DNA from: Shigella phage Sf20
Reading direction: 5' to 3' (one strand)
Sequence record: MF327006
DNA length: 64,000 bases
A model generated the notes under the pieces. The model was not told where the DNA came from. It was given only the letters and a program-made list of their open reading frames with translations, and searched no databases. Position 1 is the stretch's first letter, and each line of letters starts with the position of its first letter. Below are positions 10,617-62,157 of this stretch, in pieces. Both the position numbers and the translations under genes were made by a program.

Positions 10617-10620
10617 GGTG

Positions 10621-10677: not shown

Positions 10678-10935
10678 ATGGCACGTCGTAAATTTACAGA
10701 TAATTGTGAAGCAATTCAGGTATCCCCTTGCGGTTGGGATGTGATCGCGAACGGTGAAAAGATCGGAGAGATCATCGATCATACTCATTCATCACTAGCC
10801 GATTACACCGATGAACTATGGGAGGGTATCAACTTCATGAATGACACTAAACGATTCAAGACTATCGACGAAGCTATCTATTTTGTGTATAATCCAACTT
10901 TCGGTATGTGGGGAACTAGAAAATGGCACGCGTAA
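10678..10935 (+). CDS. hypothetical protein, 85 aa (first gene of inserted cassette)
   Basis: ORF with RBS GGAGG; begins MAR like the next two genes. Confidence 0.5.
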   Translation: MARRKFTDNCEAIQVSPCGWDVIANGEKIGEIIDHTHSSLADYTDELWEGINFMNDTKRFKTIDEAIYFVYNPTFGMWGTRKWHA

Positions 10936-35137: not shown

Positions 35138-35413
35138 TCAGGACATTGCCCGTTTGAATGCGTCCATTATAACAGTGTTATTTGGCTTGTCAACACGTTT
35201 TTGAACTTTATTTTTAAATTTTTTGTTGATGTGGTGTTTACGATAAACAACCTTTTCACGGTTGGCGTAAGCCTCGCGTGCGTCTTTTACCATCAACCAT
35301 GCCTTAGCCGCATCTTGTCCGCTGATCCCGCCAATCTTCTTAGCAATATCAACAAAATTAAGACCGTGGTCTTCGCGTAGCATGTAAACCATTAACGCTG
35401 TTTTCTTGTCCAT
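35138..35413 (-). CDS. hypothetical HTH-like protein, 91 aa
   Basis: Starts at internal ATG of the 127-aa track ORF; that ATG overlaps the stop of the upstream small gene (TGATG); helix-turn-helix-like LNFVDIAKKIGGISGQDAAKAW. Confidence 0.45.
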   Translation of the reverse strand: MDKKTALMVYMLREDHGLNFVDIAKKIGGISGQDAAKAWLMVKDAREAYANREKVVYRKHHINKKFKNKVQKRVDKPNNTVIMDAFKRAMS

Positions 35414-49129: not shown

Positions 49130-49150
49130 TTTAAGCCTCCCATATAACAG

Positions 49151-49190
49151 AAAACGGGGCTAGTATAAAACTAGTCCCCGTTTGAGTCAA
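49151..49190 (-). terminator. rho-independent terminator downstream of alt (minus strand)
   Basis: Minus-strand stem-loop (CGGGGACTAG..CTAGCCCCG) followed by TTTTCTGTT. Confidence 0.55.
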
Positions 49191-49207
49191 CCATTATTTC
49201 TTAAAAA

Positions 49208-51333
49208 TTACATTTTAAATTTATCTGGCATTGCGTCTACAGATACCAGGTCAGCGATAAGCTGACGTAGAGTTGCCTTATCTGCTTTCTTACGTTCGGT
49301 TTTAGCTTCGCTAATGAAGCTGGAGAAAGACAGGTCAGAAGCAGGTTTAACAACACCTTCACGGATGAATGCATCACCGTCCGCGATCATCTCGCCAGAT
49401 TCTTGTAATGCTGCCAGTTCATTTTTGTTCATAATATGTGCCTCAATGTAATAAGTTTCTTGTGAATCCGTCGATGCCGTAGCACGAGTTACCGTATCAA
49501 AGGATAACACAACACCGCGAGGAAGTAAAATCTCGCATTCTTTGTAAGCAAATGCTTTGTTACCTACTGGCAAGACAGGGATGTTTTCCGCGCCAGCAAT
49601 GGAGAAAGCAACATTAGCGCCACCTTCACCGCGAGAGCCAGCCATAGAATCAACACCAGCAACGGCACTAGCCACGTTTGCATTCCAGCCGCCAAAAATT
49701 CACCGCGAGAGCCAGCCATAGAATCAACACCAGCAACGGCACTAGCCACGTTTGCATTCCAGCCGCCAAAAATGTTAGGTGCAAGGGAAGTGCTCACATA
49801 GTTTTTAAAGTAAAACGCTTTTTGCTTACGTGCAGTTTCCCACATTTGCGACCGGAAGTCCATACCACGATACAGAATAGTACCCGGATCAAGTTTAACA
49901 CCATAGTTAGAGAAGGCATTATCCAGTGCATCGCACATCTTGACCAATTCTTCTGGATCTGCGATTCCCTCAAACTCTTCCAGCTTACGATCAGTTAGGA
50001 AGTTGTTCATATTGATGTATGCTGCATCGGCATATTCGCTCAACACAAAACCTTCCGCGCCTGGCAGATCAAGATCAATATCTGCCATCATTTCACCCAT
50101 GTTGCTAGCAATTGCTTCAAACATACCGGAGGCAACATTACGTAGGGCATCGGTTTTAATCTGGGTGATATGACTACGCAGCATTTCAGCTTTTACATCT
50201 GCTGGCATAGACTGGTCTACTCGATCCATTGCCAAGGCGGTGATCTTGTTTTCGAATACTTCCTCGCTCATGATTTCTTTTAAGCGTTTGACCGAGGCTG
50301 CGATAACTTCCGCAGACAATGGGTCATATTGATCCTGAACTTTTACCAGTTCGCTTACTGCGTATTTTGCATCGGCTTCGCTTTCAAAAATAGTACGCAT
50401 GAAACCATAGCGAGTGATAATATCACTTGTCCAGTCATTCAGAGAACGGGCGGTTGAACGTTCTAAGGCTTGACGGTCAATCAGAGTATTAAACTGTTTC
50501 TTAGGTTCTGCTTCGGTGATATCTTCTTCCGGTTTAAGATTAATTTTTTCTGGATGATTCACATAGTCGCTGTTATAGGTCGCTTGAGTTTTCAGCATTT
50601 CTTCTTTAGTCAAACGAGATTTAGCCGCTACGCGTTGTTCTGCTTCCGCGTTTCGTTCTTCTTCTGACACAAGACTAGCCGCATACGCCTCATCTTTAGT
50701 CAGAGATTCACCAGTAGCCTTAGATACCCAGCGATCACCTAAATCACTTTCTACTTTAGTGAACAAGGATTCATCAAGTTTAATCCCTTTAATCTTATCA
50801 ATCGCCATCCCGCGACGCTTGACAACAACTAAAGCGATCTTTTTGCTGGTCATTACTTCCTGCTGGAATACTTCAAACTTCGGTGTACGACGCACCAAAC
50901 GCTCTATAACGCGCTTAACCAGTTCGGTCTTACCTTTCATGCGGGATACGTTAAAACGGAACATAACAGCGTCTAATTGAGCTTTACGGGCTGTTTCCAT
51001 AACCACATCAAAAGCACTTGCCATAACTGCAATCGGGTTATCGCCTAGACCATTTTTAAGCTGTATAATACGACCGCTTTTGTTCATTTCGCACAGTACA
51101 ACATGTGCGGTCTTGTCACCCATACGAATGATTTTAGGTGTTTTGTTGGTGAAGTTGCAAAGACGGACAATCACATCTTTATCGCGTGTCTGTACTGCAA
51201 AAAGCTGTTTAGGATTCTGCTTAGGCTTTAAGCACTGTACAGGAGCAATACTGCCAAAGTTTTCTTCCTCTTCCGTCAACAGCCATTTCTCGAAAGATTC
51301 AATCATTAGATCGTCGATTTCTAAGTTAAACAT
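49208..51333 (-). pseudogene. alt: alt (ADP-ribosyltransferase) disrupted by 74-bp tandem duplication frameshift
   Basis: 589-aa ORF (49564-51333) carries LYRG and YVSTS; 155-aa ORF (49208-49675) carries the ExE motif KECEIL; both encode ASAVAGVDSMAGSRGE from the duplicated segment; removing one copy gives a single ORF of about 683 aa (T4 Alt is about 682 aa). Confidence 0.75.
49625..49772. repeat. perfect tandem direct duplication, 2 x 74 bp
   Basis: 49625-49698 is identical to 49699-49772 (TTCACCGCGAGAGCCAGCCATAGAATCAACACCAGCAACGGCACTAGCCACGTTTGCATTCCAGCCGCCAAAAA). Confidence 0.9.
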
Positions 51334-51375
51334 TTTATATCCTCTAGTTGATAACCTATAAACCTATATTTATGA

Positions 51376-51400
51376 AAACGGGGCTTAACGCCCCCTTTTT
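51376..51400 (-). terminator. terminator-like hairpin GGGGC-ttaac-GCCCC between small gene and alt
   Basis: Hairpin at 51380-51394 flanked by A-run and T-run; same hairpin sequence recurs at 55644. Confidence 0.5.
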
Positions 51401-51401
51401 A

Positions 51402-51614
51402 TTATAATGCACCATCAAGCAATTGCTCTAAGGTGTATCCTGAATAGTCTTTTTCAATCAGGATATATTTTCCTACTCGTTTAATACAACCACGCATTTC
51501 AACGTATTCTGCGTAGTTGATGGTACGAGTTGTTCCATCTTCCAGTAATGCAGTACCGATTTCGTTAATGCGGTCATAAGTTACGTCGGTAATGATGATT
51601 TCGATGTTAGCCAT
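51402..51614 (-). CDS. hypothetical protein, 70 aa (starts MANIE)
   Basis: ATG 51614 with RBS AAGGAG; ORF-track GTG extension would overlap the promoter cassette. Confidence 0.5.
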   Translation of the reverse strand: MANIEIIITDVTYDRINEIGTALLEDGTTRTINYAEYVEMRGCIKRVGKYILIEKDYSGYTLEQLLDGAL

Positions 51615-51650
51615 TTGATACTCCTTAGTAGTTCGTTTCGGTATGTGTGC

Positions 51651-51679
51651 ATTATAGGGGATCACCGATCCCCTGTCAA
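51651..51679 (-). promoter_or_regulatory. PeSL-like cassette promoter 1: TTGACA - GGGGATCGGTGATCCCC - TATAAT
   Basis: Plus attata 51651-56, 17-nt hairpin spacer, tgtcaa 51674-79. Confidence 0.6.
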
Positions 51680-51686
51680 CAACTTT

Positions 51687-52205
51687 TTAGTTATTTTTTA
51701 ATTGTTCATCTTGCAATAATGCAATCACATGCTGGCGATGTTCTTCCGATTGAGGTACACCGAAAAAGTTTGTTTTGTAGAAATACTCTAATCGGTCTTC
51801 TCGTGTGCTCTCTTCCATCATGATCGCGGGTAGTCCGAGATTTCGGAAACGTCGCTTTTCTGCTGGCGTAAAATCACTGTAATACAACATAGAATCATCA
51901 TTACAAGCAATGCTAAACTCATCCTTCATAAAGGAGAATATTGCGTTTAAACGCTGTTTACCGTCCACGATTTCGATCTCATAGCGAGAGCCATCATCAA
52001 TCTTAGCCATTGCGATAGCACCAACCGGAAAATCATTAATCAGGTTTTCAATAAACATACGTTTGTTTTCGGTGTCCCATACTAAAGGACGCTGATAATC
52101 TGGGTTCATGTTGATATAGCCATCTTCTAACCATGCTTCGTAAACAGAGATAACAAAGTTTTTAGTATTGGTATAGTAGCGGCGTTTAGGCGTTAAACGG
52201 TTCAT
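51687..52205 (-). CDS. DUF262 / ParB-like nuclease-domain protein, 172 aa
   Basis: Motifs DYQRPLVW and DGKQRL; ATG 52205 one nt after upstream stop, RBS AGGAG. Confidence 0.55.
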   Translation of the reverse strand: MNRLTPKRRYYTNTKNFVISVYEAWLEDGYINMNPDYQRPLVWDTENKRMFIENLINDFPVGAIAMAKIDDGSRYEIEIVDGKQRLNAIFSFMKDEFSIACNDDSMLYYSDFTPAEKRRFRNLGLPAIMMEESTREDRLEYFYKTNFFGVPQSEEHRQHVIALLQDEQLKNN

Positions 52206-52206
52206 G

Positions 52207-52536
52207 TTATAGTCTCCTGAATGGGTCATCACGTAAATCAATATCTTTTAAGAACTCATCCCATGAATGGCGGATATTGTTCTTAATTCTCCAGATGAGC
52301 GCAGGGATTGAACGCTCTCCCATCTGGAAGTATGGATCATATGATCCGTATGCCCAATATGCTACTACAATTCCACAATCAGAGCAATAGTATTCTATTT
52401 CACTTGCTGGCGACCAAAGTCCATCAATATGATCGGTGATCTTGCTTTCGATGTTATGGCTATGACAATCAGGGCAACGGATGCAATGACCTTGTTTATC
52501 GTAATTTGACGTTAGCGAATACTTAAACAATCTCAT
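52207..52536 (-). CDS. zinc-ribbon protein, 109 aa
   Basis: Cys clusters CIRCPDC and CSDCG; start overlaps upstream stop (TAATG). Confidence 0.55.
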   Translation of the reverse strand: MRLFKYSLTSNYDKQGHCIRCPDCHSHNIESKITDHIDGLWSPASEIEYYCSDCGIVVAYWAYGSYDPYFQMGERSIPALIWRIKNNIRHSWDEFLKDIDLRDDPFRRL

Positions 52537-53252
52537 TATAGATCCTTATTTGCTTCAAATACTGCCTTTGCGAATCCTCGCGGGGTAAGTGACCTTATAG
52601 TCTTTGTTTTCGTTCCTTTCCCGCCTAGCTTAGAATGCTGTTTACTGTACCCTTTATTAATCTGCAACGGTTTCTTTTCTGGCATTATAAAGCCTTGTCC
52701 GGTCCATAAGCAAGTCTTTTTTGGGTACATATCACGGGCGGCAATATACTCAGGAAACGTAGGATGCTTATCATCTTCCGGCAAATAACCGCCATATTCC
52801 CACGGATGGAACATATAATCAGGCTTACGCCACATGCTAGAGATAACGCTTACAGGATTCTCTATCATGTAGGGAACTCCTAGCCATTCACCCAAATAAG
52901 CGGTTATTTTAGCTGCCCGTACATCATGAACTTGAATCAATGGTCCTTGTTCTCGTTTCTTTCGTTCAAAGTGCGCAGCGCCACTAACAGCTAAATTGGT
53001 GCACGGTGGGAATGCAAAGATAATATCCGGTTTCCCCCATTCAAGGTCCATTGCTCTTTCCAGCCAGTTCAAATCAATCCATGTGTTTACATAGGTAATG
53101 TTTGGATGTTCAAATCTGGTATTATACTTTTTGTATGTGCCGTGGTCGCCATCATCAGCATTAAAGCAGATCACCTTATGACCTGCTTTAGCCCATTCTA
53201 GCCCCATTATCCCCGATCCGTCAAAGTTACAGAATATTAATTTTTGTTTCAT
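52536..53252 (-). CDS. C5-cytosine methyltransferase-like protein lacking a target-recognition domain, 238 aa
   Basis: Motif I FCNFDGSG, FNADD, motif IV FPPCTNLAVSGA (PC), motif VI MIENPV; RBS AAAGGGG. Confidence 0.5.
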   Translation of the reverse strand: MKQKLIFCNFDGSGIMGLEWAKAGHKVICFNADDGDHGTYKKYNTRFEHPNITYVNTWIDLNWLERAMDLEWGKPDIIFAFPPCTNLAVSGAAHFERKKREQGPLIQVHDVRAAKITAYLGEWLGVPYMIENPVSVISSMWRKPDYMFHPWEYGGYLPEDDKHPTFPEYIAARDMYPKKTCLWTGQGFIMPEKKPLQINKGYSKQHSKLGGKGTKTKTIRSLTPRGFAKAVFEANKDL

Positions 53253-53494
53253 ATACGCCCCTTTAATCCAACACAGATTTTAGAAGGTTCTTTGCCGTGC
53301 CACATTAAGTAAAGTCCGTTAATGCGGCCTTGTTTTGTATATGATTCTTTTCTGATCTTCTTATAGTGTCGTGTTTCCTCAGCCGATTGTTTAGAATACC
53401 AATCATAAAGGAAGATGAACAAAGGCCACCCATTAGCGGCCTTAATGCAGTTATTCAAAAATTCCTTATTGCGTTTAATTAATTTTCTTTTCAC
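53249..53494 (-). CDS. hypothetical protein, 81 aa (GTG start)
   Basis: GTG start overlaps upstream stop (GTGA); no internal ATG near the start. Confidence 0.4.
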   Translation of the reverse strand: MKRKLIKRNKEFLNNCIKAANGWPLFIFLYDWYSKQSAEETRHYKKIRKESYTKQGRINGLYLMWHGKEPSKICVGLKGRI

Positions 53495-53742
53495 GCTGCC
53501 CCCATTGGTTTGATAGTAACAGAATCTAAAAGACCTTTGTTAGCCAGTTCGCGGCAAGTTTTCAGATCCGCAACTTCCCAACCAGCCGCAATCAGGTTAT
53601 CAATCAGGCTGTTAGCAACTTCTTCGCTCATGAAAGAGCACTGTTTGCCGATGGTGTAGCGTACACGCTGTAATTTCAGTTTACGGAAGCCTTTAACGTT
53701 CAGGTCTTTAGCGATTTTCTTTGCGGTTTCGATGTTAGCCAT
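53491..53742 (-). CDS. hypothetical protein, 83 aa (starts MANIE)
   Basis: First gene after cassette promoter 2; RBS AGGAGA; first 16 nt of CDS identical to the 70-aa gene at 51614. Confidence 0.5.
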   Translation of the reverse strand: MANIETAKKIAKDLNVKGFRKLKLQRVRYTIGKQCSFMSEEVANSLIDNLIAAGWEVADLKTCRELANKGLLDSVTIKPMGAA

Positions 53743-53782
53743 TGTTTGATTCTCCTAAGTGGTATCTCGTCTTGATGGTTGT

Positions 53783-53811
53783 ATTGTAGGGGAGTTATCC
53801 TCCCCTGTCAA
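53783..53811 (-). promoter_or_regulatory. PeSL-like cassette promoter 2: TTGACA - GGGGAGGATAACTCCCC - TACAAT
   Basis: Plus attgta 53783-88, 17-nt hairpin spacer, tgtcaa 53806-11. Confidence 0.55.
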
Positions 53812-53825
53812 CACTTTTTATAAAA

Positions 53826-53993
53826 TTATTTGTTAATTTCTGGTGCGTTGCTAGGATAGTAACCTTCTTTAACACCCAGATATTTTGCAACCATCCCTAC
53901 AATCTTCTGTGCTACTACAATGTCAAATTTCAGATAATCTTCGCCGTGGGTTTCAATGATATATGCTTCACATGCTGCTTTAGTCTCGAACAT
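53826..53993 (-). CDS. small hypothetical protein, 55 aa (paralog copy A)
   Basis: MFETKAACEAYIIETHGEDYLKFDIVVAQK..; about 85 percent nt identity by eye to copy at 57593-57760. Confidence 0.55.
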   Translation of the reverse strand: MFETKAACEAYIIETHGEDYLKFDIVVAQKIVGMVAKYLGVKEGYYPSNAPEINK

Positions 53994-54026
53994 TTTGATT
54001 CTCCTATTTCGTTTCGTTATGTGTGT

Positions 54027-54055
54027 ATTATAGGGGATCTCCCGATCCCCGTCAA
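54027..54055 (-). promoter_or_regulatory. PeSL-like cassette promoter 3: TTGACG - hairpin GGGATCGGGAGATCCCC - TATAAT
   Basis: Plus attata 54027-32, 17-nt hairpin spacer, cgtcaa 54050-55. Confidence 0.55.
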
Positions 54056-54069
54056 CAACTTTTTTAAAA

Positions 54070-54351
54070 TTATTCGTGATTAGTTTCGATGTTGTGCATT
54101 TTGCACCAGTTCAGCCAATCACCCAGATCCTGATAGTTAATGCTTTTATCTGCTGCCATCGTTTTTGTCTTGATACCCATATGTGCGTTATGAGTAAGCA
54201 TTTTTACAGTGAACTCAATTTTATCACCTTTAGCTTTAACATCAACCAGTTTGGTCCACTGGCTACCAGCGCCGCGAATGTTCATACCAACGATGTTTCC
54301 GATGTATGCTTCTTTGTTTTTCAGGATTTCGGTTGCTTTGATGAATTTCAT
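54070..54351 (-). CDS. hypothetical protein, 93 aa
   Basis: ORF starting directly downstream of cassette promoter 4 and conserved leader. Confidence 0.5.
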   Translation of the reverse strand: MKFIKATEILKNKEAYIGNIVGMNIRGAGSQWTKLVDVKAKGDKIEFTVKMLTHNAHMGIKTKTMAADKSINYQDLGDWLNWCKMHNIETNHE

Positions 54352-54384
54352 TTTTGATTCTCCAGTTCGTTTCGGTATGTGTGT

Positions 54385-54413
54385 ATTATGCTATGTTCTT
54401 ACTTTGGTGTCAA
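54385..54413 (-). promoter_or_regulatory. PeSL-like cassette promoter 4 (degenerate): TTGACA - N17 - CATAAT
   Basis: Plus attatg 54385-90, tgtcaa 54408-13; spacer not palindromic. Confidence 0.45.
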
Positions 54414-54421
54414 CAACTTTT

Positions 54422-54691
54422 TTAGATATTTTCAGAAATAAATTTTAAAACTTGACGTAAATGTTTCTCATCTTTGATAGTCGCCGGAAGTTCTTCTTTT
54501 ACTTCCTGTGCAAGATAGATATTTCCGTTCCAAGTGAAAGATCCGTCTTCGTTTACGCGATAGCTGAACATCCACTCGCAATCATTTTCGATTTCATATA
54601 CACACAGAAGGGTGTAATCGTTAAAGCTATTGATTTCAAGGTCGAAGCCGTGACGTTTTGCAAAGTTGGTAGTGGTTTTAGTCAGAGCCAT
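54422..54691 (-). CDS. hypothetical protein, 89 aa
   Basis: ORF downstream of cassette promoter 5. Confidence 0.5.
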   Translation of the reverse strand: MALTKTTTNFAKRHGFDLEINSFNDYTLLCVYEIENDCEWMFSYRVNEDGSFTWNGNIYLAQEVKEELPATIKDEKHLRQVLKFISENI

Positions 54692-54731
54692 TGTTTGATT
54701 CTCCTAAATGGTATCTCGTTTCGATGGGTGT

Positions 54732-54760
54732 ATTATGCTATAGGCCGGATCTGGTGTCAA
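54732..54760 (-). promoter_or_regulatory. PeSL-like cassette promoter 5: TTGACA - CCAGATCCGGCCTATAG - CATAAT
   Basis: Plus attatg 54732-37, 17-nt spacer, tgtcaa 54755-60. Confidence 0.5.
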
Positions 54761-54770
54761 TGCCTTTTTT

Positions 54771-54801
54771 AAAAAAGCCGACACTAAGGTCGGCACATTT
54801 T
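54771..54801 (-). terminator. terminator hairpin GCCGACACTAAGGTCGGC
   Basis: Hairpin 54777-54794 flanked by A/T runs, just downstream of stop at 54800; identical hairpin at 55279. Confidence 0.6.
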
Positions 54802-55111
54802 AAAAATTCTTGCTATATATGCAAGCCTCATAATCTAGAGGATGACCGCCAATCCTACCCGGCTTAATATTCCAACCGCATCGATATTTGCTGACCATGC
54901 TAACAGTTTCGGTTCTTAGAGCATTTCTTTGCAAATCATACCCCCTAAATTCTTGTCTATAAGGACAGTCCGCTTTGCAAGTTGGCGGTTCTACGTCATT
55001 TAGAGGGTCGGAAGCAGTTGGCTTTATTATCAATTCTTTGTTTGCAATAATCATAAGCACATCCCATTGAAGACAATTTAACATCTTCGCAATAAGTGTT
55101 GAATCCGTCAA
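54800..55111 (-). CDS. hypothetical Cys-containing protein; start uncertain (TTG at 55111, ATG at 55084 or 55054)
   Basis: 103-codon ORF whose 5-prime part overlaps the 63-aa ORF in another frame; possible frameshift or overlapping gene. Confidence 0.35.
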   Translation of the reverse strand: MTDSTLIAKMLNCLQWDVLMIIANKELIIKPTASDPLNDVEPPTCKADCPYRQEFRGYDLQRNALRTETVSMVSKYRCGWNIKPGRIGGHPLDYEACIYSKNF

Positions 55112-55187
55112 ACACGATCACTTCGTATTTGACTCCATCAGCGATAGCTTTTACTTTATACCATCCATGCTTGTATAAAATCTTCAT
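54996..55187 (-). CDS. small Cys-rich protein, 63 aa
   Basis: ATG 55187 with GAGGA RBS downstream of cassette promoter 6. Confidence 0.45.
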   Translation of the reverse strand: MKILYKHGWYKVKAIADGVKYEVIVFDGFNTYCEDVKLSSMGCAYDYCKQRIDNKANCFRPSK

Positions 55188-55219
55188 CTTTATTTCCTCG
55201 ATCTCGTTTCGATGGGTGT

Positions 55220-55249
55220 ATTATGCTATAGGCTAGACCAGGTTGTCAA
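55220..55249 (-). promoter_or_regulatory. PeSL-like cassette promoter 6: TTGACA - N18 - CATAAT
   Basis: Plus attatg 55220-25, tgtcaa 55244-49. Confidence 0.5.
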
Positions 55250-55271
55250 CAACTTTTTTAATTTTTTGGAA

Positions 55272-55300
55272 ATAAAAAGCCGACACTAAGGTCGGCTAAT
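55272..55300 (-). terminator. terminator hairpin GCCGACACTAAGGTCGGC (second exact copy)
   Basis: Hairpin 55279-55296 followed on minus strand by TTTTTATTT. Confidence 0.6.
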
Positions 55301-55304
55301 AAAA

Positions 55305-55613
55305 TCATTTAGACAAGTAATCATTCTGTGCAATACGGTCGGCGTATGCTGGTGTTATGTCAATCGCCAGCACTTTAACGCGTGCTTTCTTGCGACCTGG
55401 GTTTTCTCGTAACCAGTGCTCATGACCGTGAACATTTTTATACTTTGATGCTTCTTCAAATGTACGGATCGGACCTGGGTAATCAGCGTAAAGGATCTCT
55501 AGGTCTTCGGTGATGTAAAAATATACATCGTAATTACTGTTCTCTAGTTTAAGCAGAGAGTTGCGAAATTGTGGTAAATTCTCGCGGGTAAATTCAACTA
55601 CAAGATTTTTCAT
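55305..55613 (-). CDS. HxHW-family small protein, paralog A, 102 aa
   Basis: Signature YDVYFYITEDL ... HGHEHW ... VLAIDI; RBS GAGGA. Confidence 0.55.
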   Translation of the reverse strand: MKNLVVEFTRENLPQFRNSLLKLENSNYDVYFYITEDLEILYADYPGPIRTFEEASKYKNVHGHEHWLRENPGRKKARVKVLAIDITPAYADRIAQNDYLSK

Positions 55614-55639
55614 AGTGATATCCTCATTCAGATAGATTA

Positions 55640-55660
55640 AAAGGGGGCTTAACGCCCCGT
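55640..55660 (-). terminator. terminator-like hairpin GGGGC-ttaac-GCCCC
   Basis: Hairpin 55644-55658 downstream of stop at 55664. Confidence 0.5.
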
Positions 55661-55663
55661 ATA

Positions 55664-55951
55664 TTAAAACAGTCCTTCCTGTACACCGTAGTAGAGTTCA
55701 TCGCTGATAATTTCATTAATGCGACGGTGTGCATATTCCTGATTTGCGAAGTTATCAGCAAGTTCTACTTTAGTTTCGCCGTCATGAGTCCATTTAGTGA
55801 TAACTTTACCATCTGCAAATTTGAAGTTGAACTCTTTAGCTACTGCATCGCGTACCAGACGTGCGAACTTGTTGTTACGGATTGCATTATCGGTTTCGTG
55901 TGCAGCGTGAGCGAATTTGTTAACTTTCAGAGTGATAGTAATGTATGCCAT
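55664..55951 (-). CDS. hypothetical protein, 95 aa (paralog of the gene at 58978-59289)
   Basis: Shared segment LVRDAVAKEFNFKF vs EVRKALAKEFNTKI. Confidence 0.5.
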   Translation of the reverse strand: MAYITITLKVNKFAHAAHETDNAIRNNKFARLVRDAVAKEFNFKFADGKVITKWTHDGETKVELADNFANQEYAHRRINEIISDELYYGVQEGLF

Positions 55952-55997
55952 AATTTGATTCTCCTAGTTAGAAAGTGTATCTCGTTTCGATGGGGAT

Positions 55998-56026
55998 ATT
56001 ATGCTATATCCCCGATCCGGTGTCAA
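55998..56026 (-). promoter_or_regulatory. PeSL-like cassette promoter 7: TTGACA - CCGGATCGGGGATATAG - CATAAT
   Basis: Plus attatg 55998-56003, 17-nt spacer, tgtcaa 56021-26. Confidence 0.5.
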
Positions 56027-56032
56027 CACTTT

Positions 56033-56311
56033 TTATAAAATAATTTTTTGATATTTTTCTATGATGTTCGTGTAAGTCACATCAACCGCTAGCACCGTTG
56101 CTTCGAATCCACCGTTTAGCCAATGGCTATGATCATGATCGTGAAAGAAACCTAGACCAGTACGAAGACCTTCTTTATATTCTGCGCGTACATTCAGTTT
56201 GTCGTCGATAAACAGATAAAACCATGAATTTTTACTAGGATTGATGATACAACCTTTCAGATTAGGGAGAATATCACGACTAAGAATAAACTTATCACCT
56301 ACTTTGAGCAT
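56033..56311 (-). CDS. HxHW-family small protein, paralog B, 92 aa
   Basis: Signature WFYLFIDDKL ... HDHSHW ... VLAVDV; start at ATG 56311 with RBS GAGGAAAA (ORF-track extension trimmed). Confidence 0.5.
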   Translation of the reverse strand: MLKVGDKFILSRDILPNLKGCIINPSKNSWFYLFIDDKLNVRAEYKEGLRTGLGFFHDHDHSHWLNGGFEATVLAVDVTYTNIIEKYQKIIL

Positions 56312-56325
56312 AATATTTTCCTCAC

Positions 56326-56634
56326 TTATAAAGTTTGACCGTTGTTTTTCGCGTAATGCTGAATGCGTGCTTGATCTGCTTCCGCTGGTGATAGATTCCA
56401 TGCGATCACTACAACTTCTGACGCATCATGATCATTATCACTTACCCAATGATTATGATTCATACAATTGTTTGCTATCGCGTGAGCAAATGATCTCATT
56501 ACCGGAGACGTATAATCATAGTAACGGATTTTCAGATTTTCATCAACGTACAAGTAGATCGTATACGGCTTATATTCAGTAACCAGTAACAGACAGTTAC
56601 GCAATTCTGGGAAAATCTTTTTAGTTAATTTCAT
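56326..56634 (-). CDS. HxHW-family small protein, paralog C, 102 aa
   Basis: Signature YTIYLYVDENL ... HNHW ... VIAWNL; start at ATG 56634 (N-terminus MKLTKKIFPEL parallels paralog A). Confidence 0.5.
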   Translation of the reverse strand: MKLTKKIFPELRNCLLLVTEYKPYTIYLYVDENLKIRYYDYTSPVMRSFAHAIANNCMNHNHWVSDNDHDASEVVVIAWNLSPAEADQARIQHYAKNNGQTL

Positions 56635-56635
56635 T

Positions 56636-56866
56636 TTATAATCCTCGGTCGCGGCTATAGTAAACGGTACGCCATACAATTTCATGTTTCGTGTCGCTCC
56701 AGCACACGATCTCATTTACTCTTAAATCTTTGTTATCAACAAAAGATGAACATTGTGACGCTTCTTTCATCATTTTATCTGCTGTTTTCTCATCAAATAC
56801 AGCACAGATTTCTTTATACACTCGATAATCTTTGAATTGACTCTGAATACCCATAATTAACACCAT
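56636..56866 (-). CDS. hypothetical protein, about 76 aa (paralog of the gene at 56814-57077); start uncertain
   Basis: Shared segment FKDYRVYKEICAVFDEKTADKMMKEASQC vs FKEYKAYQQILRVYAPEFAEKMMEDASKC. Confidence 0.4.
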   Translation of the reverse strand: MVLIMGIQSQFKDYRVYKEICAVFDEKTADKMMKEASQCSSFVDNKDLRVNEIVCWSDTKHEIVWRTVYYSRDRGL

Positions 56867-57077
56867 TCCAACCAATTGTTTTTGAGAAAACGTTTATCCA
56901 CTGTTGAGTGTAACATGTTTCTTTCCATGATACAATACGAGTAGAATAATGGTTTTTGTTTCCAGAAAAGGACGGGCATTTTGATGCATCTTCCATCATC
57001 TTTTCGGCGAACTCTGGTGCGTATACTCGCAGGATCTGTTGATATGCTTTGTATTCTTTAAATTTGCTCATAATCAT
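56814..57077 (-). CDS. hypothetical protein, 87 aa
   Basis: ATG 57077; 3-prime end overlaps the start of the downstream paralog in another frame. Confidence 0.45.
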   Translation of the reverse strand: MIMSKFKEYKAYQQILRVYAPEFAEKMMEDASKCPSFSGNKNHYSTRIVSWKETCYTQQWINVFSKTIGWNGVNYGYSESIQRLSSV

Positions 57078-57336
57078 TCACTACCTTATCAGCTTCTTTT
57101 GTTGTTTTTACATCAACTGCGATAACTCGTAAAGGTTCGTCATGGTTCCACCAGTGGTCATGAATATCAGCTTGTGATTTATCACCAAAGGAATCACGAA
57201 TATCATTTTTACATTTATAGCTAATGTGACCTTCATAGTCAACATAAAGGTAATTATCGAAAATCGGCGTTTTTAAGATCATACCGAAAAATCTTTCTTT
57301 GTGTGTCTTATCCAGCGTTGCAGTAATTCGCATCAT
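57058..57336 (-). CDS. HxHW-family small protein, paralog D, 92 aa
   Basis: Signature NYLYVDYEGH ... IHDHWW ... VIAVDV; RBS AAGAGGA. Confidence 0.55.
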   Translation of the reverse strand: MMRITATLDKTHKERFFGMILKTPIFDNYLYVDYEGHISYKCKNDIRDSFGDKSQADIHDHWWNHDEPLRVIAVDVKTTKEADKVVNDYEQI

Positions 57337-57348
57337 AATATATTCCTC

Positions 57349-57528
57349 TTAGAAAGGGATGGTCATTTCTTGAGCTTGTACGTTCTCGTTAGGATTAAAC
57401 TTCATCCAGCCGATATTGTCTACCAGCATATGCACATTTTTATCATATCCTACGTGGGTAGTCAATACTGTATGTGCTTTACCTTCAATGATGAGTTCCA
57501 TGTACTTCTGAACTTCGATAGCTTTCAT
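57349..57528 (-). CDS. small hypothetical protein, 59 aa
   Basis: ATG directly after conserved cassette leader (GGAGAATCAAA-ATG); below ORF-track size cutoff. Confidence 0.45.
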   Translation of the reverse strand: MKAIEVQKYMELIIEGKAHTVLTTHVGYDKNVHMLVDNIGWMKFNPNENVQAQEMTIPF

Positions 57529-57560
57529 TTTGATTCTCCGTTTGTTGTCTTGATGGGAGT

Positions 57561-57589
57561 ATCTTACTACTCCCTTTAATCATTGTCAA
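57561..57589 (-). promoter_or_regulatory. PeSL-like cassette promoter 8: TTGACA - N17 - TAAGAT
   Basis: Plus atctta 57561-66, tgtcaa 57584-89; GGGAGTA..TACTCCC hairpin in leader. Confidence 0.45.
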
Positions 57590-57592
57590 CTA

Positions 57593-57760
57593 TTATTTGT
57601 TAATTTCTGGTGCGTTGCTCGGATAGTAACCTTCTTTAACACCAAGATATTTTGCAACCATTCCGGTGATCTTCTGTGCTACTACGATATCGAATTTCAG
57701 GTAGTCTTCACCGTGGTTTGCTACAATGTACGCTTCGCATTCTGCTTTAGTCTGGAACAT
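57593..57760 (-). CDS. small hypothetical protein, 55 aa (paralog copy B)
   Basis: MFQTKAECEAYIVANHGEDYLKFDIVVAQK..; ORF-track TTG extension trimmed. Confidence 0.55.
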   Translation of the reverse strand: MFQTKAECEAYIVANHGEDYLKFDIVVAQKITGMVAKYLGVKEGYYPSNAPEINK

Positions 57761-57794
57761 TTTTGATTCTCCTATATCTCGTTGGTATGTGTGC

Positions 57795-57823
57795 ATTATA
57801 GGGGATCGGTGATCCCCTGTCAA
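57795..57823 (-). promoter_or_regulatory. PeSL-like cassette promoter 9: TTGACA - GGGGATCACCGATCCCC - TATAAT
   Basis: Plus attata 57795-800, 17-nt hairpin spacer, tgtcaa 57818-23. Confidence 0.6.
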
Positions 57824-57828
57824 CAACT

Positions 57829-58122
57829 TTATAATGCTTTATATGCGTATTTCATAAATTTGTCTGCCACTTCATTGGCATGTTCAGATTCTACGCCTGA
57901 TTCGAGAACAATAGCTAGGTCGGTTTCGTCATTCCCGCCGTACCAATGATTTGATGTTCGATTTTTTTCAATTGGAAAGTGGTCACTTTTATCTGTGCGA
58001 CAAAATACATCTAAATGCTCGTCGATGTAAAAGATCCAATCTTCATAAAGAATAACGGTATTAGCAAGATTTTTATTGCCTTCAACGAAAGGTTCGGCTA
58101 CAAACAAATTAGTATGTTCCAT
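57829..58122 (-). CDS. HxHW-family small protein, paralog E, 97 aa
   Basis: Signature DWIFYIDEHL ... SNHW ... AIVLES; start at ATG 58122 with RBS GAGGAAA. Confidence 0.45.
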   Translation of the reverse strand: MEHTNLFVAEPFVEGNKNLANTVILYEDWIFYIDEHLDVFCRTDKSDHFPIEKNRTSNHWYGGNDETDLAIVLESGVESEHANEVADKFMKYAYKAL

Positions 58123-58138
58123 AGTATTTTCCTCAAAA

Positions 58139-58330
58139 TTATACAGCTTCGTAAACTTCCCAATGTCCAACACCAGCACGCTTAACGAAAAGGTTTTCTT
58201 TGATGTTATTCATAAACGTCTGGATGGATTTAATGCGGTTTGAAGGTTTCCATTCTTCGTTGGCATTGCGTCGATACATCATAACATTACCAGTTCGCTT
58301 ATATTCAGCAACCATTTTAAGACCACACAT
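58139..58330 (-). CDS. hypothetical protein, 63 aa
   Basis: ATG 58330 with RBS GAGGA. Confidence 0.45.
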   Translation of the reverse strand: MCGLKMVAEYKRTGNVMMYRRNANEEWKPSNRIKSIQTFMNNIKENLFVKRAGVGHWEVYEAV

Positions 58331-58387
58331 AATATTATCCTCAATTTGTGGGAGAGTATTACCCCTCCCAATGATTGTTATGTTATA

Positions 58388-58708
58388 TCACACAAAATGG
58401 CGTGTCAATGCTTCTTTTGCGGTTCCGCTAAGACTTTCGATCTCGCCTGGCATAACATCAACCGCCAGAACTTCTACAACATCCTCGGACCCTAACCAGT
58501 GAGTATGACCTTTGTAGAACTTGATAACCAGACTACCTTCCTCGTCCCATTTAACGCTATCGCTAGCCCACCACACATCACAGTCGATAAAGTTGATGTA
58601 AAGCACACTACGCCACATTGAATTAATTACTTTCAATATTGCGCCTTTCATCTCTTCCACGGTATGGTCTTCCATTTTGAAGACCTCACCTACCTGAACT
58701 TTTGCCAT
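58388..58708 (-). CDS. HxHW-family small protein, paralog F, 106 aa
   Basis: Signature VLYINFIDCDV ... GHTHW ... VLAVDV; RBS GAGGTGA. Confidence 0.55.
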   Translation of the reverse strand: MAKVQVGEVFKMEDHTVEEMKGAILKVINSMWRSVLYINFIDCDVWWASDSVKWDEEGSLVIKFYKGHTHWLGSEDVVEVLAVDVMPGEIESLSGTAKEALTRHFV

Positions 58709-58725
58709 TTAGTCACCTCTCTTTA

Positions 58726-58905
58726 TTACATAACAATCACGCCAGCCGTTGAAAGTTGATGTTTCAACTGAGCATTTTCTGCTACCGTCAAATCAATGAT
58801 TTCTTGTGACGCTGCAATCATATAGCCATTGGTGATATTGTTTTGCATCAGTTCAATGGTTTCTTCGTTGTAGCGGATTTTAGCGATGATTTCGTTGAAG
58901 TTCAT
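58726..58905 (-). CDS. small hypothetical protein, 59 aa
   Basis: ATG after conserved cassette leader; below ORF-track size cutoff. Confidence 0.45.
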   Translation of the reverse strand: MNFNEIIAKIRYNEETIELMQNNITNGYMIAASQEIIDLTVAENAQLKHQLSTAGVIVM

Positions 58906-58939
58906 AATTGATTCTCCTAGTTCGTTTCGGTATGTGTGT

Positions 58940-58969
58940 AGTATAGGGGAGTTTAACCTCCCCTGTCAA
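58940..58969 (-). promoter_or_regulatory. PeSL-like cassette promoter 10: TTGACA - GGGGAGGTTAAACTCCCC - TATACT
   Basis: Plus agtata 58940-45, 18-nt hairpin spacer, tgtcaa 58964-69. Confidence 0.5.
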
Positions 58970-58977
58970 CAACTTTT

Positions 58978-59289
58978 TTAAAGTTTTTCCATGATAACGG
59001 TCATAATTACATCTTCTGCGCGAGCGGTCAGATTATCAGCGTCAGCATGTGGGCGGTTGGTTGTTACAGAGATAACACCGTTGCGCACTGGTTTGATATT
59101 GATATCAAGATGATCCGCGAAACGTTCGCCAGTTACAGAATGAATTTTGGTGTTAAATTCTTTTGCCAGTGCCTTGCGAACTTCACGAATCAGGATAGCG
59201 TTTTTCAGTTGGTTCTCCGCGCTCATGGTCTTCTGGGTGTTCATGGTTCCGTCGAAGTCAATCATTGGCAGCGTTACGATGTATTTCAT
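58978..59289 (-). CDS. hypothetical protein, 103 aa (paralog of the gene at 55664-55951)
   Basis: ATG after conserved cassette leader; shared KEFN segment. Confidence 0.5.
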   Translation of the reverse strand: MKYIVTLPMIDFDGTMNTQKTMSAENQLKNAILIREVRKALAKEFNTKIHSVTGERFADHLDINIKPVRNGVISVTTNRPHADADNLTARAEDVIMTVIMEKL

Positions 59290-59334
59290 TTTTGATTCTC
59301 CGTTTAAGAAAGTGTGTTTCGTTTTGATGTGTGT

Positions 59335-59363
59335 AGTATAGGGGATACGTGATCCCCTGTCAA
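59335..59363 (-). promoter_or_regulatory. PeSL-like cassette promoter 11: TTGACA - GGGGATCACGTATCCCC - TATACT
   Basis: Plus agtata 59335-40, 17-nt hairpin spacer, tgtcaa 59358-63. Confidence 0.55.
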
Positions 59364-59376
59364 CAACTTTTTTGAA

Positions 59377-59721
59377 TTATTTTTTCATGAGCTTAATGGC
59401 TTCTTCCATAGCCAGCACATTTCGATAGTTAGGGTATCGTGTTAGATCGTCATACATTCGCTTAAGGGTGGAAACTTCCTCAAACTCTGGGTTTTCTAGA
59501 TACAGTTGAACAAATTGTTTCTCTACCATCTCTGCTTTTAGCTTGTCTGCTTGTTCCTGTTCATATGATTTCGTTGGACCCAACACCAACAAAATGATAA
59601 AGGTGATCAACGGGCTAATGATCAATGATAGGATAACATAACCGATAACGCTACGGTTTAAACGGCTTGCATACATGCCTACCAGGAAAACAAAAAGGAT
59701 ATAGATAAACAGAAAGAACAT
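59377..59721 (-). CDS. small membrane protein, 114 aa
   Basis: Two N-terminal hydrophobic helices (FFLFIYILFVFLVGMY; YVILSLIISPLITFIILLVL). Confidence 0.55.
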   Translation of the reverse strand: MFFLFIYILFVFLVGMYASRLNRSVIGYVILSLIISPLITFIILLVLGPTKSYEQEQADKLKAEMVEKQFVQLYLENPEFEEVSTLKRMYDDLTRYPNYRNVLAMEEAIKLMKK

Positions 59722-59728
59722 ATAATGG

Positions 59729-60202
59729 TTACTCCTTATTTTCGCGCTCGTACTTTTCGAAATAAAATTCTACTGGCTGGTCATTAATTGACAGCAATCC
59801 AAAGCGTTTAGCCGCTCGCAATCCCATATTGCGCTGAATGTACTTCTGGAAGTTCTCGCGTATACACTTACGCCAGTATTCTAAGCCCATACAGCTTTTA
59901 TAAAGATTGCATTGCACACACGCCGGATTCATGTTATCAAGTATATCATGTTCCGGTTTATGCATTCCTACAACCTTATACTTCCACGATCCATCATCAT
60001 TACGGGCAATTCGTCCATTTTCATCATAGACTACCTTTGAGCGTCGCAATACTGGTTTGATGTGGTCTGCGTGCCAGCGATCCCCTAGTTCCTCGCCACA
60101 ATAGGCACAACGTCCACCATATTTCATTTTCAGGATCTGTCGTTGCTCTTTCTTTGACAATTTTTTAGGTTTAGGGGCTTTCGCCCCTTCATTATCACAC
60201 AT
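59729..60202 (-). CDS. HNH endonuclease, 157 aa
   Basis: HNH signature CAYCG ... HADHIKP ... N ... CVQCN; RBS AAGAGGT. Confidence 0.65.
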   Translation of the reverse strand: MCDNEGAKAPKPKKLSKKEQRQILKMKYGGRCAYCGEELGDRWHADHIKPVLRRSKVVYDENGRIARNDDGSWKYKVVGMHKPEHDILDNMNPACVQCNLYKSCMGLEYWRKCIRENFQKYIQRNMGLRAAKRFGLLSINDQPVEFYFEKYERENKE

Positions 60203-61691
60203 CGAATACCTCTTTTACTGTATTTGCAGTGGTCTTGTCGTAGCGAATACGTTTGATGATTGGGAGAAATAAAGAGAACTCCGGTTCATCTTCTTTACGT
60301 GATTTGCTGCGAATGTACCCGTTGCATGTCATCTCAATGACTTTTCCAATCAGGTTATGACGGTCAGCCCATAACATTTCTCGGTCGAGTTCATTTCGAC
60401 GATCGAACGGAATTACACGTTCAGTACCATCATCACCTTTTTCGGTTGTAGTGTCGGTTAATCCCGATCCGGTGTTAGTCATCATTCGTCCGCACGCACT
60501 ACGGACAGTAAAACCGCCTACCTTATTGGGGTCTTTACTATGCGGATATACATCAACAATTTCCGCGTCGAAGTCAATCACTTCTTTAAATTTAACCTGA
60601 TCTTTACTACGGCGATCTTCAAATACACCATGTAAATTTTTAAGGATAATACCTTCTAAGCCCATGTTTACATAGCGATGATATACTTCGCGAGCTTCAT
60701 CTATATTGTTAACTACAGTGTTTTCGATTATCTGAACACGAGGATCGTTAAGTTCTTCAACAATCTGTTTTAGTTCTTCGAATCGATCTTTATATTGCTT
60801 CGTTGCTTTCTCGTTTCCGTAATACACATCACGGTCGATAACATCCCAGACAGTGTAAACAATACATTGGGCTTCTTCTTTTGGAATAGTTCCTTTCAGT
60901 GATTTGTTGAGGATACCATTTCCGGTCTGACGATCTGCAACAACGGATTCTTTTACTGCTTCCGCTACTGGCGTTAATGGCATTTCCTCTTCTTCAAATA
61001 TCCATGACAGAGTACCATCATAAACGCTTTCAACGAAGTTCTGCGCTGGTGTTTGCGAAAGGGTAGGCATATATACCAATTCCCCATCTAGAACAATTCC
61101 ACGGCCTCGTAGACGCTCTAGAACAGCAAACAAATCATCAAGTCCCTGATAGGTATTACCTGAACGGGTATAGATTGCTAATGTTTCCCCGTCAATATCA
61201 GCCATCCCACGAGCGCCATCGCTTTTAAGTTGTGCATACGCCGGATACTTGATATTAGCAATAGTCTTATCAGAACATGACGATGCAAGGTGGCACGGTT
61301 GCTGAGGGATCAGTTTCTTCCATACCTTGTTTGCAGTGGTAGCGGAACAACCACATTCCAGATCACGATTCAGGACCATCATTGCAACTTTAGCATCATC
61401 CTCTGACAAGCAAGTCAGAGTATCGGTAACTAGCTGTAATGCTGCATTACCAGTTACTTGACGCGTGGCAAGTTTATTTTTAAAGACCTGTAATGCACCG
61501 GATAAAGACAATACAGACGAATAGCGAGATGGTTTATCGTATTTCTTTACGCCAAACGTAACCTGTTTGCAATATGCCAGATAAAAGCATTCTTTCAGCG
61601 TTTCATTGCTTGCTGATTCTTTCAGAATCTTTTCTTTCAGCGATGTTTTGTCTGTTGCTGCAAGCTGATTAATGATATTAAGAATTGACAT
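60195..61691 (-). CDS. 30: ATP-dependent DNA ligase gp30, 498 aa
   Basis: Adenylation motif KSDGAR; N-terminus SILNIINQLA resembles remembered T4 ligase N-terminus; ORF-track GTG extension trimmed. Confidence 0.9.
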   Translation of the reverse strand: MSILNIINQLAATDKTSLKEKILKESASNETLKECFYLAYCKQVTFGVKKYDKPSRYSSVLSLSGALQVFKNKLATRQVTGNAALQLVTDTLTCLSEDDAKVAMMVLNRDLECGCSATTANKVWKKLIPQQPCHLASSCSDKTIANIKYPAYAQLKSDGARGMADIDGETLAIYTRSGNTYQGLDDLFAVLERLRGRGIVLDGELVYMPTLSQTPAQNFVESVYDGTLSWIFEEEEMPLTPVAEAVKESVVADRQTGNGILNKSLKGTIPKEEAQCIVYTVWDVIDRDVYYGNEKATKQYKDRFEELKQIVEELNDPRVQIIENTVVNNIDEAREVYHRYVNMGLEGIILKNLHGVFEDRRSKDQVKFKEVIDFDAEIVDVYPHSKDPNKVGGFTVRSACGRMMTNTGSGLTDTTTEKGDDGTERVIPFDRRNELDREMLWADRHNLIGKVIEMTCNGYIRSKSRKEDEPEFSLFLPIIKRIRYDKTTANTVKEVFDV

Positions 61692-62157
61692 TTTCACCTC
61701 GTTTTGTTAAACGTTCACGAATATCATTGAGGATACTACAAAATTCCGATTCAGTCAATATAGTCTTTAACGGATCAGTTCCACCTATACTATGACGTAA
61801 TTTCTTATTTCCGGTAGAGAGTAATGCTTTACAAAATTCTGGGTTATTCCGTGCCATCGTAACAAATGCCAGATGTACCAGTCTGTAATAATGCTCACTC
61901 ATTCGATGAATAGGGCGACCCTGAAAATATAACATGTGATTCTCAATCTTTTCAGTTCTTCCGGTTCTTTTTGCTTTGCCACCGTGCATCAAAAAGATTT
62001 CTCTTTGTCTCTGAGGGTTCTTAAATCTTAGCCCCTGTAAAAATCCTTCTGTGCTGTTAATATCGCAACCAAATAGACGGAATGGTCTTTTATTGAAATT
62101 ACTCAATTCACCCGATGGATAAGGTCCACCCGCATAGATATCAATTTCAGAAGTCAT
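61678..62157 (-). CDS. NADAR (YbiA-like) domain protein, 159 aa
   Basis: IDIYAGGPYPSGELSNF ... STEGFLQGLRF ... LLSTGNKKL resemble NADAR/YbiA conserved segments. Confidence 0.55.
   Translation of the reverse strand: MTSEIDIYAGGPYPSGELSNFNKRPFRLFGCDINSTEGFLQGLRFKNPQRQREIFLMHGGKAKRTGRTEKIENHMLYFQGRPIHRMSEHYYRLVHLAFVTMARNNPEFCKALLSTGNKKLRHSIGGTDPLKTILTESEFCSILNDIRERLTKRGENVNS

Follow-up and report, generated by a model that had tools for sequence, protein, structure and literature searches.

Cassettes resembling the promoter-early stem-loops of RB49 punctuate the hyperplastic region between alt and the DNA ligase gene of Shigella phage Sf20

The 64,000-nucleotide (nt) stretch of Shigella phage Sf20 DNA analyzed here (sequence record MF327006; referred to as the window) contains, between alt and gene 30 (DNA ligase), a hyperplastic region bounded by the alt start at 51333 and the ligase stop at 60195. 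On the minus strand of this region we counted 27 small open reading frames (ORFs) of 55 to 238 aa, using the ORF list together with the start sites annotated in phage RB49. Distributed among them are 11 intergenic copies of an approximately 90-nt module, or cassette, with a sigma70-type promoter, in most cases a hairpin, and a Shine-Dalgarno (SD) sequence leading into the next gene. Judged by sequence, these cassettes are the promoter-early stem-loops (PeSLs) of RB49-type T4-like phages. An earlier account of the window made from its letters alone (the sequence-only reading) had described about 27 minus-strand ORFs, at least 11 copies of one module on the coding strand, and a T4 counterpart in which alt adjoins gene 30. 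The counts held, and the T4 comparison is fair, as the 62-codon alt.1 is the sole gene separating the two in T4 by sequence comparison.

Only two of the 27 region proteins passed the Pfam cut-offs: the product of 51687-52205 carries the N-terminal GmrSD_N/DUF262 domain, and that of 59729-60202 an HNH domain. No Pfam match was obtained for the other 25, including the 238-aa product of 52536-53252, which PHROGs adds as a DNA methyltransferase. PHROGs placed 23 other proteins in families of unknown function and left one unmatched, so that 24 of 27 are of unknown function or unmatched, in keeping with the earlier description of the gene content as largely ORFan. The genes behind cassettes all belong to this group, with no Pfam match and unknown function in PHROGs. 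Neither the Pfam nor the PHROGs scan found an integrase or recombinase among the 27 ORFs.

To delimit the cassettes, we built an nhmmer profile from the 11 aligned good copies and searched it against the window. The profile recovered exactly these 11, all on the minus strand within 51608-59380, with E-values from 4e-19 to 5e-12, and the next best match in the window had an E-value of 3e-5. A weak twelfth copy (c58408; handles as in Table 1) was missed by the profile at E<=10. Searching the window for TTGACA-N17-TATAAT with at most one mismatch returned nine sites against 0.94 expected from shuffles; eight of the nine fall in the alt-ligase region, all on the minus strand. When spacers of 16-18 nt were allowed, 10 sites matched at least 11 of the 12 promoter positions and two matched 10 of 12. 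The spacers of the cassettes themselves are 17-18 nt long. Aligned from 25 nt 5' of the -35 element through the start codon, the cassettes have a mean column identity of 66%, and TTGAC, a CAT in the leader, the SD and the ATG are invariant. The -10 element is exactly TATAAT in three cassettes and TATACT, TACAAT, CATAAT or TAAGAT in the others. Either A(4-6)GTTG or TATAAAAAGTG lies 5' of TTGACA, and the upstream genes' stop codons are found 5-30 nt before the -35 element. At the other end, GGAG(A/T)ATCAA precedes the ATG in 10 of 11 cassettes, with GAGGAAATAAA in c55249. For two genes the shared sequence continues into the coding region, as had been noted from the letters alone: both begin with ATGGCTAACATCGAAA (51614-51599 and 53742-53727; MANIE), a start kept in 16-17 relatives.

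The predicted 5' leaders are nearly unstructured: their minimum free energies (MFEs) range from -0.4 to -4.4 kcal/mol, 10 of the 11 leaders folded have z>=0, and no single leader was significant in this respect. Such an open leader may aid efficient translation initiation. An Rfam scan of 49000-62000 returned nothing, hence no family matching the cassette. We also noted that most cassettes, including those without a spacer hairpin, have a GATC at a constant spacer position, 3-4 nt past the -35 element (51660-59351). A role as Dam site was rejected because the enrichment is too weak (8.6/kb in cassettes compared with 4.7/kb in the rest of the region and 6.0/kb in the window, which is near the Markov expectation).

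The position of the hairpin differs among cassettes. Folding placed it within the -35/-10 spacer in six (c59363, c58969, c57823, c54055, c53811 and c51679), four of the GGGGATC..GATCCCC type, one of these imperfect, and two of the GGGGAG..CTCCCC type. It lies across the -10 element in c56026 and c57589 and downstream of it in the weak twelfth copy, and in c55249 and c54760 its place is taken by a classical terminator, GCCGACCTTAGTGTCGGC plus a T-run, immediately upstream of the -35 element. The sequence-only reading had drawn every cassette as TTGACA, a palindromic spacer and TATAAT. The near-consensus sigma70 promoter stood, and the palindromic spacer and the exact TATAAT proved to be features of six and three cassettes, respectively. 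Across 20 distinct spacer variants, stem positions pair in 93.6% of cases compared with 85.2% in shuffles, a value reached by 0 of 500 shuffles, and one stem pair covaries, switching between U-A and G-C in 6 of the 20. Relatives differ at the orthologous site upstream of the ORF198 homologue, some having GGGGATAT..ATATCCCC and others GGGTGTAT..ATACACCC, which amounts to two fully compensatory pair changes. This suggests that structure rather than sequence is kept, which favors a hairpin over a sequence-specific protein site. Since hairpins within or across the promoter lie 5' of the predicted transcription start, in RNA they could affect only transcription that enters from upstream, in line with the role published for PeSL stem-loops as terminators or attenuators.

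Table 1. Cassettes, terminator-like hairpins, duplicated genes and indels of the alt-ligase region (window coordinates; ORF numbers are those of the RB49 homologues)
Feature	Position	Strand	Details
alt-gene 30 (DNA ligase) hyperplastic region	51334..60194	-	27 early-strand ORFs; homologous to RB49 ORFs 185-212, without ORF186 and ORF192
c59363 (= RB49 PeSL211/210)	59283..59380	-	spacer hairpin GGGGATCACGTATCCCC; drives ORF210 homologue (58978-59289)
c58969	58897..58988	-	spacer hairpin GGGGAGGTTAAACTCCCC, 18-nt spacer; drives ORF209 homologue (58726-58905)
c58408, weak twelfth	58331..58433	-	TTGACA-17-TAACAT; hairpin GGGAGGGG..CTCTCCC downstream of -10; 5' of ORF207 homologue
c57823 (= RB49 PeSL206/205)	57754..57840	-	perfect TTGACA-17-TATAAT; spacer hairpin GGGGATC-ACC-GATCCCC; drives 55-aa ORF205 homologue
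c57589	57524..57608	-	TTGACA-17-TAAGAT; hairpin GGGAGTA..TACTCCC across -10; drives ORF204 homologue
c56026	55944..56044	-	hairpin GGGGATAT-AGCATA-ATATCCCC across -10 (CATAAT); drives ORF198 homologue
c55249	55182..55300	-	upstream intrinsic terminator AGCCGACCTTAGTGTCGGCT-T5 (55278-55297); drives ORF196 homologue
c54760	54684..54800	-	upstream intrinsic terminator GCCGACCTTAGTGTCGGC-T6 (54777-54794); drives ORF194 homologue
c54413	54344..54431	-	no hairpin (MFE -4.2, z +1.8); drives ORF193 homologue
c54055	53987..54075	-	spacer hairpin GGGGATC-GGGA-GATCCCC; drives 55-aa ORF191 homologue
c53811	53736..53830	-	TTGACA-17-TACAAT; spacer hairpin GGGGAG-GATAA-CTCCCC; drives ORF190 homologue, start MANIE
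c51679	51608..51697	-	perfect consensus promoter; spacer hairpin GGGGATC-GGT-GATCCCC; drives ORF185 homologue, start MANIE; ORF186 site in relatives
Intrinsic-terminator-like hairpin GGGGCGTTAAGCCCC	55644..55658	-	after ORF198 homologue; sequence identical to 51380-51394
Intrinsic-terminator-like hairpin GGGGCGTTAAGCCCC	51380..51394	-	after ORF185 homologue, just upstream of alt
55-aa gene, first copy (ORF191 homologue, phrog_8009)	53825..53996	-	87% identity over 172 nt to 57592-57763
55-aa gene, second copy (ORF205 homologue, phrog_8009)	57592..57763	-	directly behind cassette
Paralogue pair phrog_8009	53826-53993 and 57593-57760		each directly behind cassette
Paralogue pair phrog_7474	55664-55951 and 58978-59289		each directly behind cassette
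Paralogue pair phrog_9345	55305-55613 and 56326-56646		
Paralogue pair phrog_8471	56636-56854 and 56814-57077		
Indel, ORF186	at c51679		present in 11 relatives, absent from window
Indel, ORF192	at c54055		present in RB49 and MIZ6; junction in AT-rich stretch, as placed by PMC2839356
Indel, ORF195/196	c54760-c55249		absent from 8 relatives
Indel, ORF191	c53811-c54055		absent in Brandy and UPWr_E1
Indel, ORFs 187-191	c51679-c54055		absent in MIZ4; 2.4 kb
Indel, ORFs 206-209	c57823-c58969		absent in PTE-Eco09; 1.1 kb
Indel, 3.8-kb deletion			Cognac; both edges in cassettes

Comparison with known phages identified the system. The region matches positions 114409-124181 of RB49 at 97.3% identity over its whole length, in RB49 numbering ORFs 185-212 between alt (ORF184) and gene 30 (ORF213). 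Matching phage records number 63, each from an RB49-like (Krischvirus) phage with E. coli, Shigella or Salmonella as host, and the 24 kb around the region gave the same picture, which places the window phage, on sequence grounds, among the RB49-like Krischvirus. Work on RB49 and phi1 (Arbiol, Comeau, Kutateladze, Adamia, Krisch 2010, Genome Biol Evol 2:140; PMC2839356) defined the PeSL as a sigma70-consensus promoter with an AT-rich upstream part that includes the stop codon of the preceding gene, a stem-loop, often polyG/polyC, in one of five possible positions relative to the promoter, and an SD with the downstream start. About 51-52 PeSLs occur per genome, mostly in hyperplastic regions and upstream of ORFans (PMC2839356). 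The window cassettes share the sigma70 -35/-10 elements, the upstream stretch, the stem-loop positions, the SD and start, the hyperplastic location, the bounded indels and the homology. Functional tests were reported for PeSL193/192, PeSL206/205 and PeSL211/210, and minicircle work for ORFan192 and ORFan210 (PMC2839356); by the RB49 annotation, all of these map inside the alt-ligase region. Cassette c59363 is identical to RB49 PeSL211/210 at 107 of 107 positions, and c57823 to PeSL206/205 at 93 of 96, the three differences being the hairpin loop. The stem-loop of PeSL211/210 lowered lacZ expression to roughly the same degree as the rrnB T1 terminator, and PeSL206/205 gave approximately 13,000 Miller units in a lacZ fusion (PMC2839356). 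The early promoter consensus of RB49 is also in accord with the mapped 5' ends of its early transcripts, as cited in PMC1524935. The resemblance to PeSLs pointed out in the sequence-only reading is thus borne out. Since the locus and the elements are those of PMC2839356, the finding is already known; no new kind of element is present and only this mosaic differs from RB49 and phi1. The public record GEC-3S already annotates promoter signals across a cassette match.

BLAST searches with one cassette against 50,697 phage records, a check proposed along with the sequence-only reading, hit only 58 Krischvirus-type records, in 444 places. We then compared the region, as also proposed there, with that of 16 relatives (L001-L016, RB49 included) plus phi1. 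In the window and the 16 relatives' loci the profile found 178 cassettes, every one on the coding strand, and these comprise 107 different core sequences. At orthologous sites the -35 flank, hairpin, -10 element and leader occur in varying combinations, as expected if cassettes exchange segments. Indels were read from chained BLAST matches to the window (high-scoring segment pairs of >=100 nt, overlaps allowed), with Cognac aligned by hand. Of 12 distinct indel events relative to the 16 relatives, seven have both edges inside cassettes, and at their junctions the flanking matches overlap by 5-98 nt, i.e., by sequence common to two cassettes. For instance, c54055 is a single cassette, the phi1 topology, where RB49 has ORF192 between two cassettes. 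In Cognac, the hand alignment revealed a chimeric cassette: the promoter, hairpin and leader are those of PeSL206/205, and close to the SD they join the ORF191 coding sequence. Over all events, 15 of the 21 edges are located in cassettes, which make up 13% of the region and are present at 11-12 of its 28 gene junctions (binomial p 0.003-0.008 against a gene-junction null, a rough value as the indel events are not fully independent). The alt-ligase distance ranges from about 5.1 kb in Cognac to about 9.7 kb in RB49, with flanks more than 95% identical. Four pairs of region genes share a PHROG (8009, 9345, 8471 and 7474), and the phrog_8009 and phrog_7474 pairs stand directly behind cassettes, as expected if cassette-plus-gene units duplicate. 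The indel junctions support the published PeSL recombination model.

Taken together, we consider it highly probable that the cassettes are PeSLs acting as composite regulatory units, which combine early transcription, insulation and recombination between copies. Each would consist, in order, of an A/T-rich stretch with the upstream stop codon, the sigma70 -35/-10 elements, a hairpin of a G-run and a C-run in the spacer, across the -10, upstream or downstream, a short A/C-rich unstructured leader, and the GGAG SD with the start codon. Unmodified host RNA polymerase would use the near-consensus promoter right after infection, giving each small accessory gene or short operon separate early transcription. 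The hairpin would appear only in RNA reading in from upstream and would stop or attenuate such a transcript, so that each unit could be transcriptionally insulated. Because near-identical direct repeats of about 90 nt recur every 0.25-2 kb, the phage's efficient homologous recombination could act between them to delete, insert, duplicate or swap the intervening genes, and would leave chimeric cassettes at the junctions. For this model our analysis supplies the repeat family, its strand and position, the conservation of the hairpin and the indel junctions, while promoter and terminator activity and the minicircles come from the literature. In RB49/phi1 infection, inverse polymerase chain reaction (PCR) yielded circular products with chimeric PeSLs for ORFan192 and ORFan210 (PMC2839356).

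Several observations weigh against this interpretation. Three indel events have a cassette at one edge only, and two (a 265-nt insertion at 58706 and a deletion of 53251-53478) have none at either edge, such that cassettes are preferred rather than obligatory sites. The enrichment test is weakened as any viable indel would have to lie between genes in the first place. What follows the spacer hairpins is UAUAAU or UAUACU and no U-tract, so these hairpins are not canonical intrinsic terminators, and the literature tested only one such spacer stem-loop (PMC2839356). Cassette c54413 has no hairpin, and promoter and terminator activity for this phage are carried over from the RB49 orthologues.

With these points in mind, we weighed three other explanations. 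That the repeats are a chance or compositional artefact of AT-rich intergenic sequence is next to impossible, and we rejected it: loose promoter-like matches (9 of 12 positions) are indeed as frequent in the window as in shuffles (39 and 35.3), but the strict matches are in clear excess, the cassettes align, the profile E-values are very low with complete strand and position bias, and copies are conserved in 58 related genomes. A more serious contender, to which we give a real if minor chance, is that each cassette is a strong early promoter of the ordinary kind joined to a good ribosome-binding site, that selection for expression keeps the copies alike, and that they serve as passive substrates of homologous recombination without a dedicated mechanism, minicircle transfer or a role for the hairpin. 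In its favor, the scans of the 27 ORFs turned up no integrase or recombinase, a point that the PeSL authors leave open (PMC2839356), and some indels lack cassettes; junction overlaps of 42-98 nt likewise fit the short homology that T4-type recombination requires. However, conservation and mosaicism among copies extend to the leader and flanks, parts dispensable for a promoter, which argues for common descent and exchange rather than convergence, and the published circles carry chimeric PeSLs with a crossover mapped to the hairpin loop (PMC2839356). The passive-substrate explanation differs from the PeSL model only in whether recombination is targeted.

The spacer palindrome might also act mainly as double-stranded DNA, either as a site for a dimeric phage or host protein that turns off or tunes early promoters or as a target of site-specific recombination, and not as an RNA terminator. 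Perfect-palindrome stems do lie between the -35 and -10 elements, where a bound protein would block RNA polymerase, loops that are reverse complements of each other (ACC/GGT, ACA/TGT) would be equivalent for a binder with two-fold symmetry, and the PeSL authors speculated on a GGGG..CCCC-binding protein (PMC2839356). Yet the stem varies (GGGGATC, GGGGAG, GGGGATAT, GGGTGTAT, GGGAGTA) with pairing kept by compensatory changes, the hairpin occurs at five different places with respect to the promoter, two cassettes have a classical terminator in its stead, and the stem-loop alone lowered read-through in a reporter (PMC2839356). We therefore regard a role mainly as double-stranded DNA as improbable.

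The loops of the spacer palindromes provided a further observation. Among GGGGATC-NNN-GATCCCC hairpins in 17 genomes, the loop is ACC in 19, GGT in about 22, ATC in six, and GCC, ACA and TGT in one each; an imperfect ACG-T stem and the 4-nt GGGA loop are further variants. ACC/GGT and ACA/TGT are reverse-complement pairs that alternate at orthologous sites with flanks otherwise identical. In the window the loop sites are 57804-57814 (c57823) and 51660-51670 (c51679), and c57823 has ACC where RB49 PeSL206/205 has GGT. All cassettes share one strand, and exchange between direct repeats can therefore propagate a loop variant but not generate its reverse complement, so that at least one loop inversion of a perfect palindrome, and probably two, would be needed. 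Neither inversion nor palindromes are mentioned in the 2010 PeSL paper, which mapped one minicircle crossover to the hairpin loop (PMC2839356). The loop variants hint at hairpin or template-switch events at the level of DNA. The loop would be inverted by template switching or by a cruciform event at the palindrome, and a structure-specific nuclease, e.g., the phage's endonuclease VII homologue, could perhaps cleave the extruded hairpin or cruciform. It is conceivable, though on balance rather unlikely, that perfect-palindrome hairpins form in DNA in vivo and not in RNA alone, that their loops invert, and that hairpin or cruciform extrusion targets recombination to PeSLs.

The closest known systems are the PeSLs of RB49 and phi1, which belong to the same genus and share with the window the region (ORFs 185-212), the module anatomy and the positional subclasses of the stem-loop. 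One cluster of RB49-specific genes relative to phi1 (ORFs 192, 195, 196, 196.1 and 211) lies here, and the RB49/phi1 indels of ORF192, ORF195/196 and ORF211 occur at the same cassettes as in the window. The mosaic of the window, without ORF186 and ORF192 and with ORF195/196 and ORF211, is unlike that of RB49, phi1 and the 15 other relatives. In PST/T4 and nt-1/KVP40, PeSL-like elements with a promoter and stem-loop flank variable genes and coincide with indels between close phages (Comeau, Arbiol, Krisch 2014; PMC4122927). T-even internal-protein loci likewise have promoter plus stem-loop motifs beside variable genes, at indels. These elements are analogues, with another promoter consensus and weaker AT-rich stems, unlike the window family. 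Lambdoid morons (Hendrix et al. 2000) and integron cassettes resemble the window units in being single accessory genes between resident genes with their own promoter and terminator. Morons reportedly lack a flanking repeat that is conserved, and their arrival is ascribed to illegitimate recombination. An integron requires an integrase together with attC sites. Unlike in integrons, no integrase was found among the ORFs of the window region, and unlike in both, the repeat itself is the regulatory element. The comparison with integrons was made by the PeSL authors themselves (PMC2839356).

PeSLs are among the few concrete mechanisms proposed for the shuffling of accessory genes in large lytic phages that leaves core genes unharmed, and the window offers another natural mosaic of the locus where they were first described. 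With the Krischvirus genomes now public, the model can be tested on a far larger scale than in the original comparison of two phages. What we add is modest, namely comparative junction data and the loop-inversion polymorphism; loop inversion, if true, would be a mechanistic lead on why recombination concentrates at the stem-loop.

We also recorded minor features of the region and its surroundings. Terminator hairpins repeat as well, with two copies of GGGGCGTTAAGCCCC and two of GCCGACCTTAGTGTCGGC (54777-54794 and 55278-55297); the latter pair flanks the ORF195/196 segment that is absent from 8 relatives. Between c53811 upstream and c51679 downstream lies a 2.1-kb block (51687-53742) of five genes with overlapping stops and starts and no cassette inside. 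It comprises a GmrSD_N/DUF262-like gene (172 aa, the N-terminal domain part only), a zinc-ribbon protein, the DNA methyltransferase (phrog_757, no Pfam match) and two small ORFs, and is absent along with ORF191 from MIZ4. Possibly the block serves as a module for DNA modification or anti-restriction. Six proteins (55305, 56033, 56326, 57058, 57829 and 58388) were seen by eye to share a His-Trp motif followed by (V/L)(L/I)A(V/I)D(V/I), and may form one larger family of unknown function. In the relative G2248 (L015), a cassette at 10352-10427 lacks the -35 element and reads ...ATCAAAACGAAGGGGATCACGTATCCCC...; it looks like a rearranged cassette in which an internal duplication joins leader to hairpin.

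Next to the region, alt carries a perfect 74-nt tandem duplication (49625-49772, minus strand) that is absent from all 14 relatives covering the site. As 74 is not a multiple of 3, the alt frame is shifted, and the ORF ends at 49564 after 589 codons, including the out-of-frame tail, compared with 683 aa in RB49 and others. The duplication may be genuine, in which case it inactivates a non-essential gene, or else it is an assembly artefact. Elsewhere in the window, perfect TTGACA/TATAAT promoter matches without the conserved leader occur at 10621-10648 and 37348-37375 on the plus strand and at 35765-35738, 35193-35166 and 19856-19827 on the minus strand, and two of these outside sites (10617-10683 and 35149-35209) are weak matches to the cassette profile.

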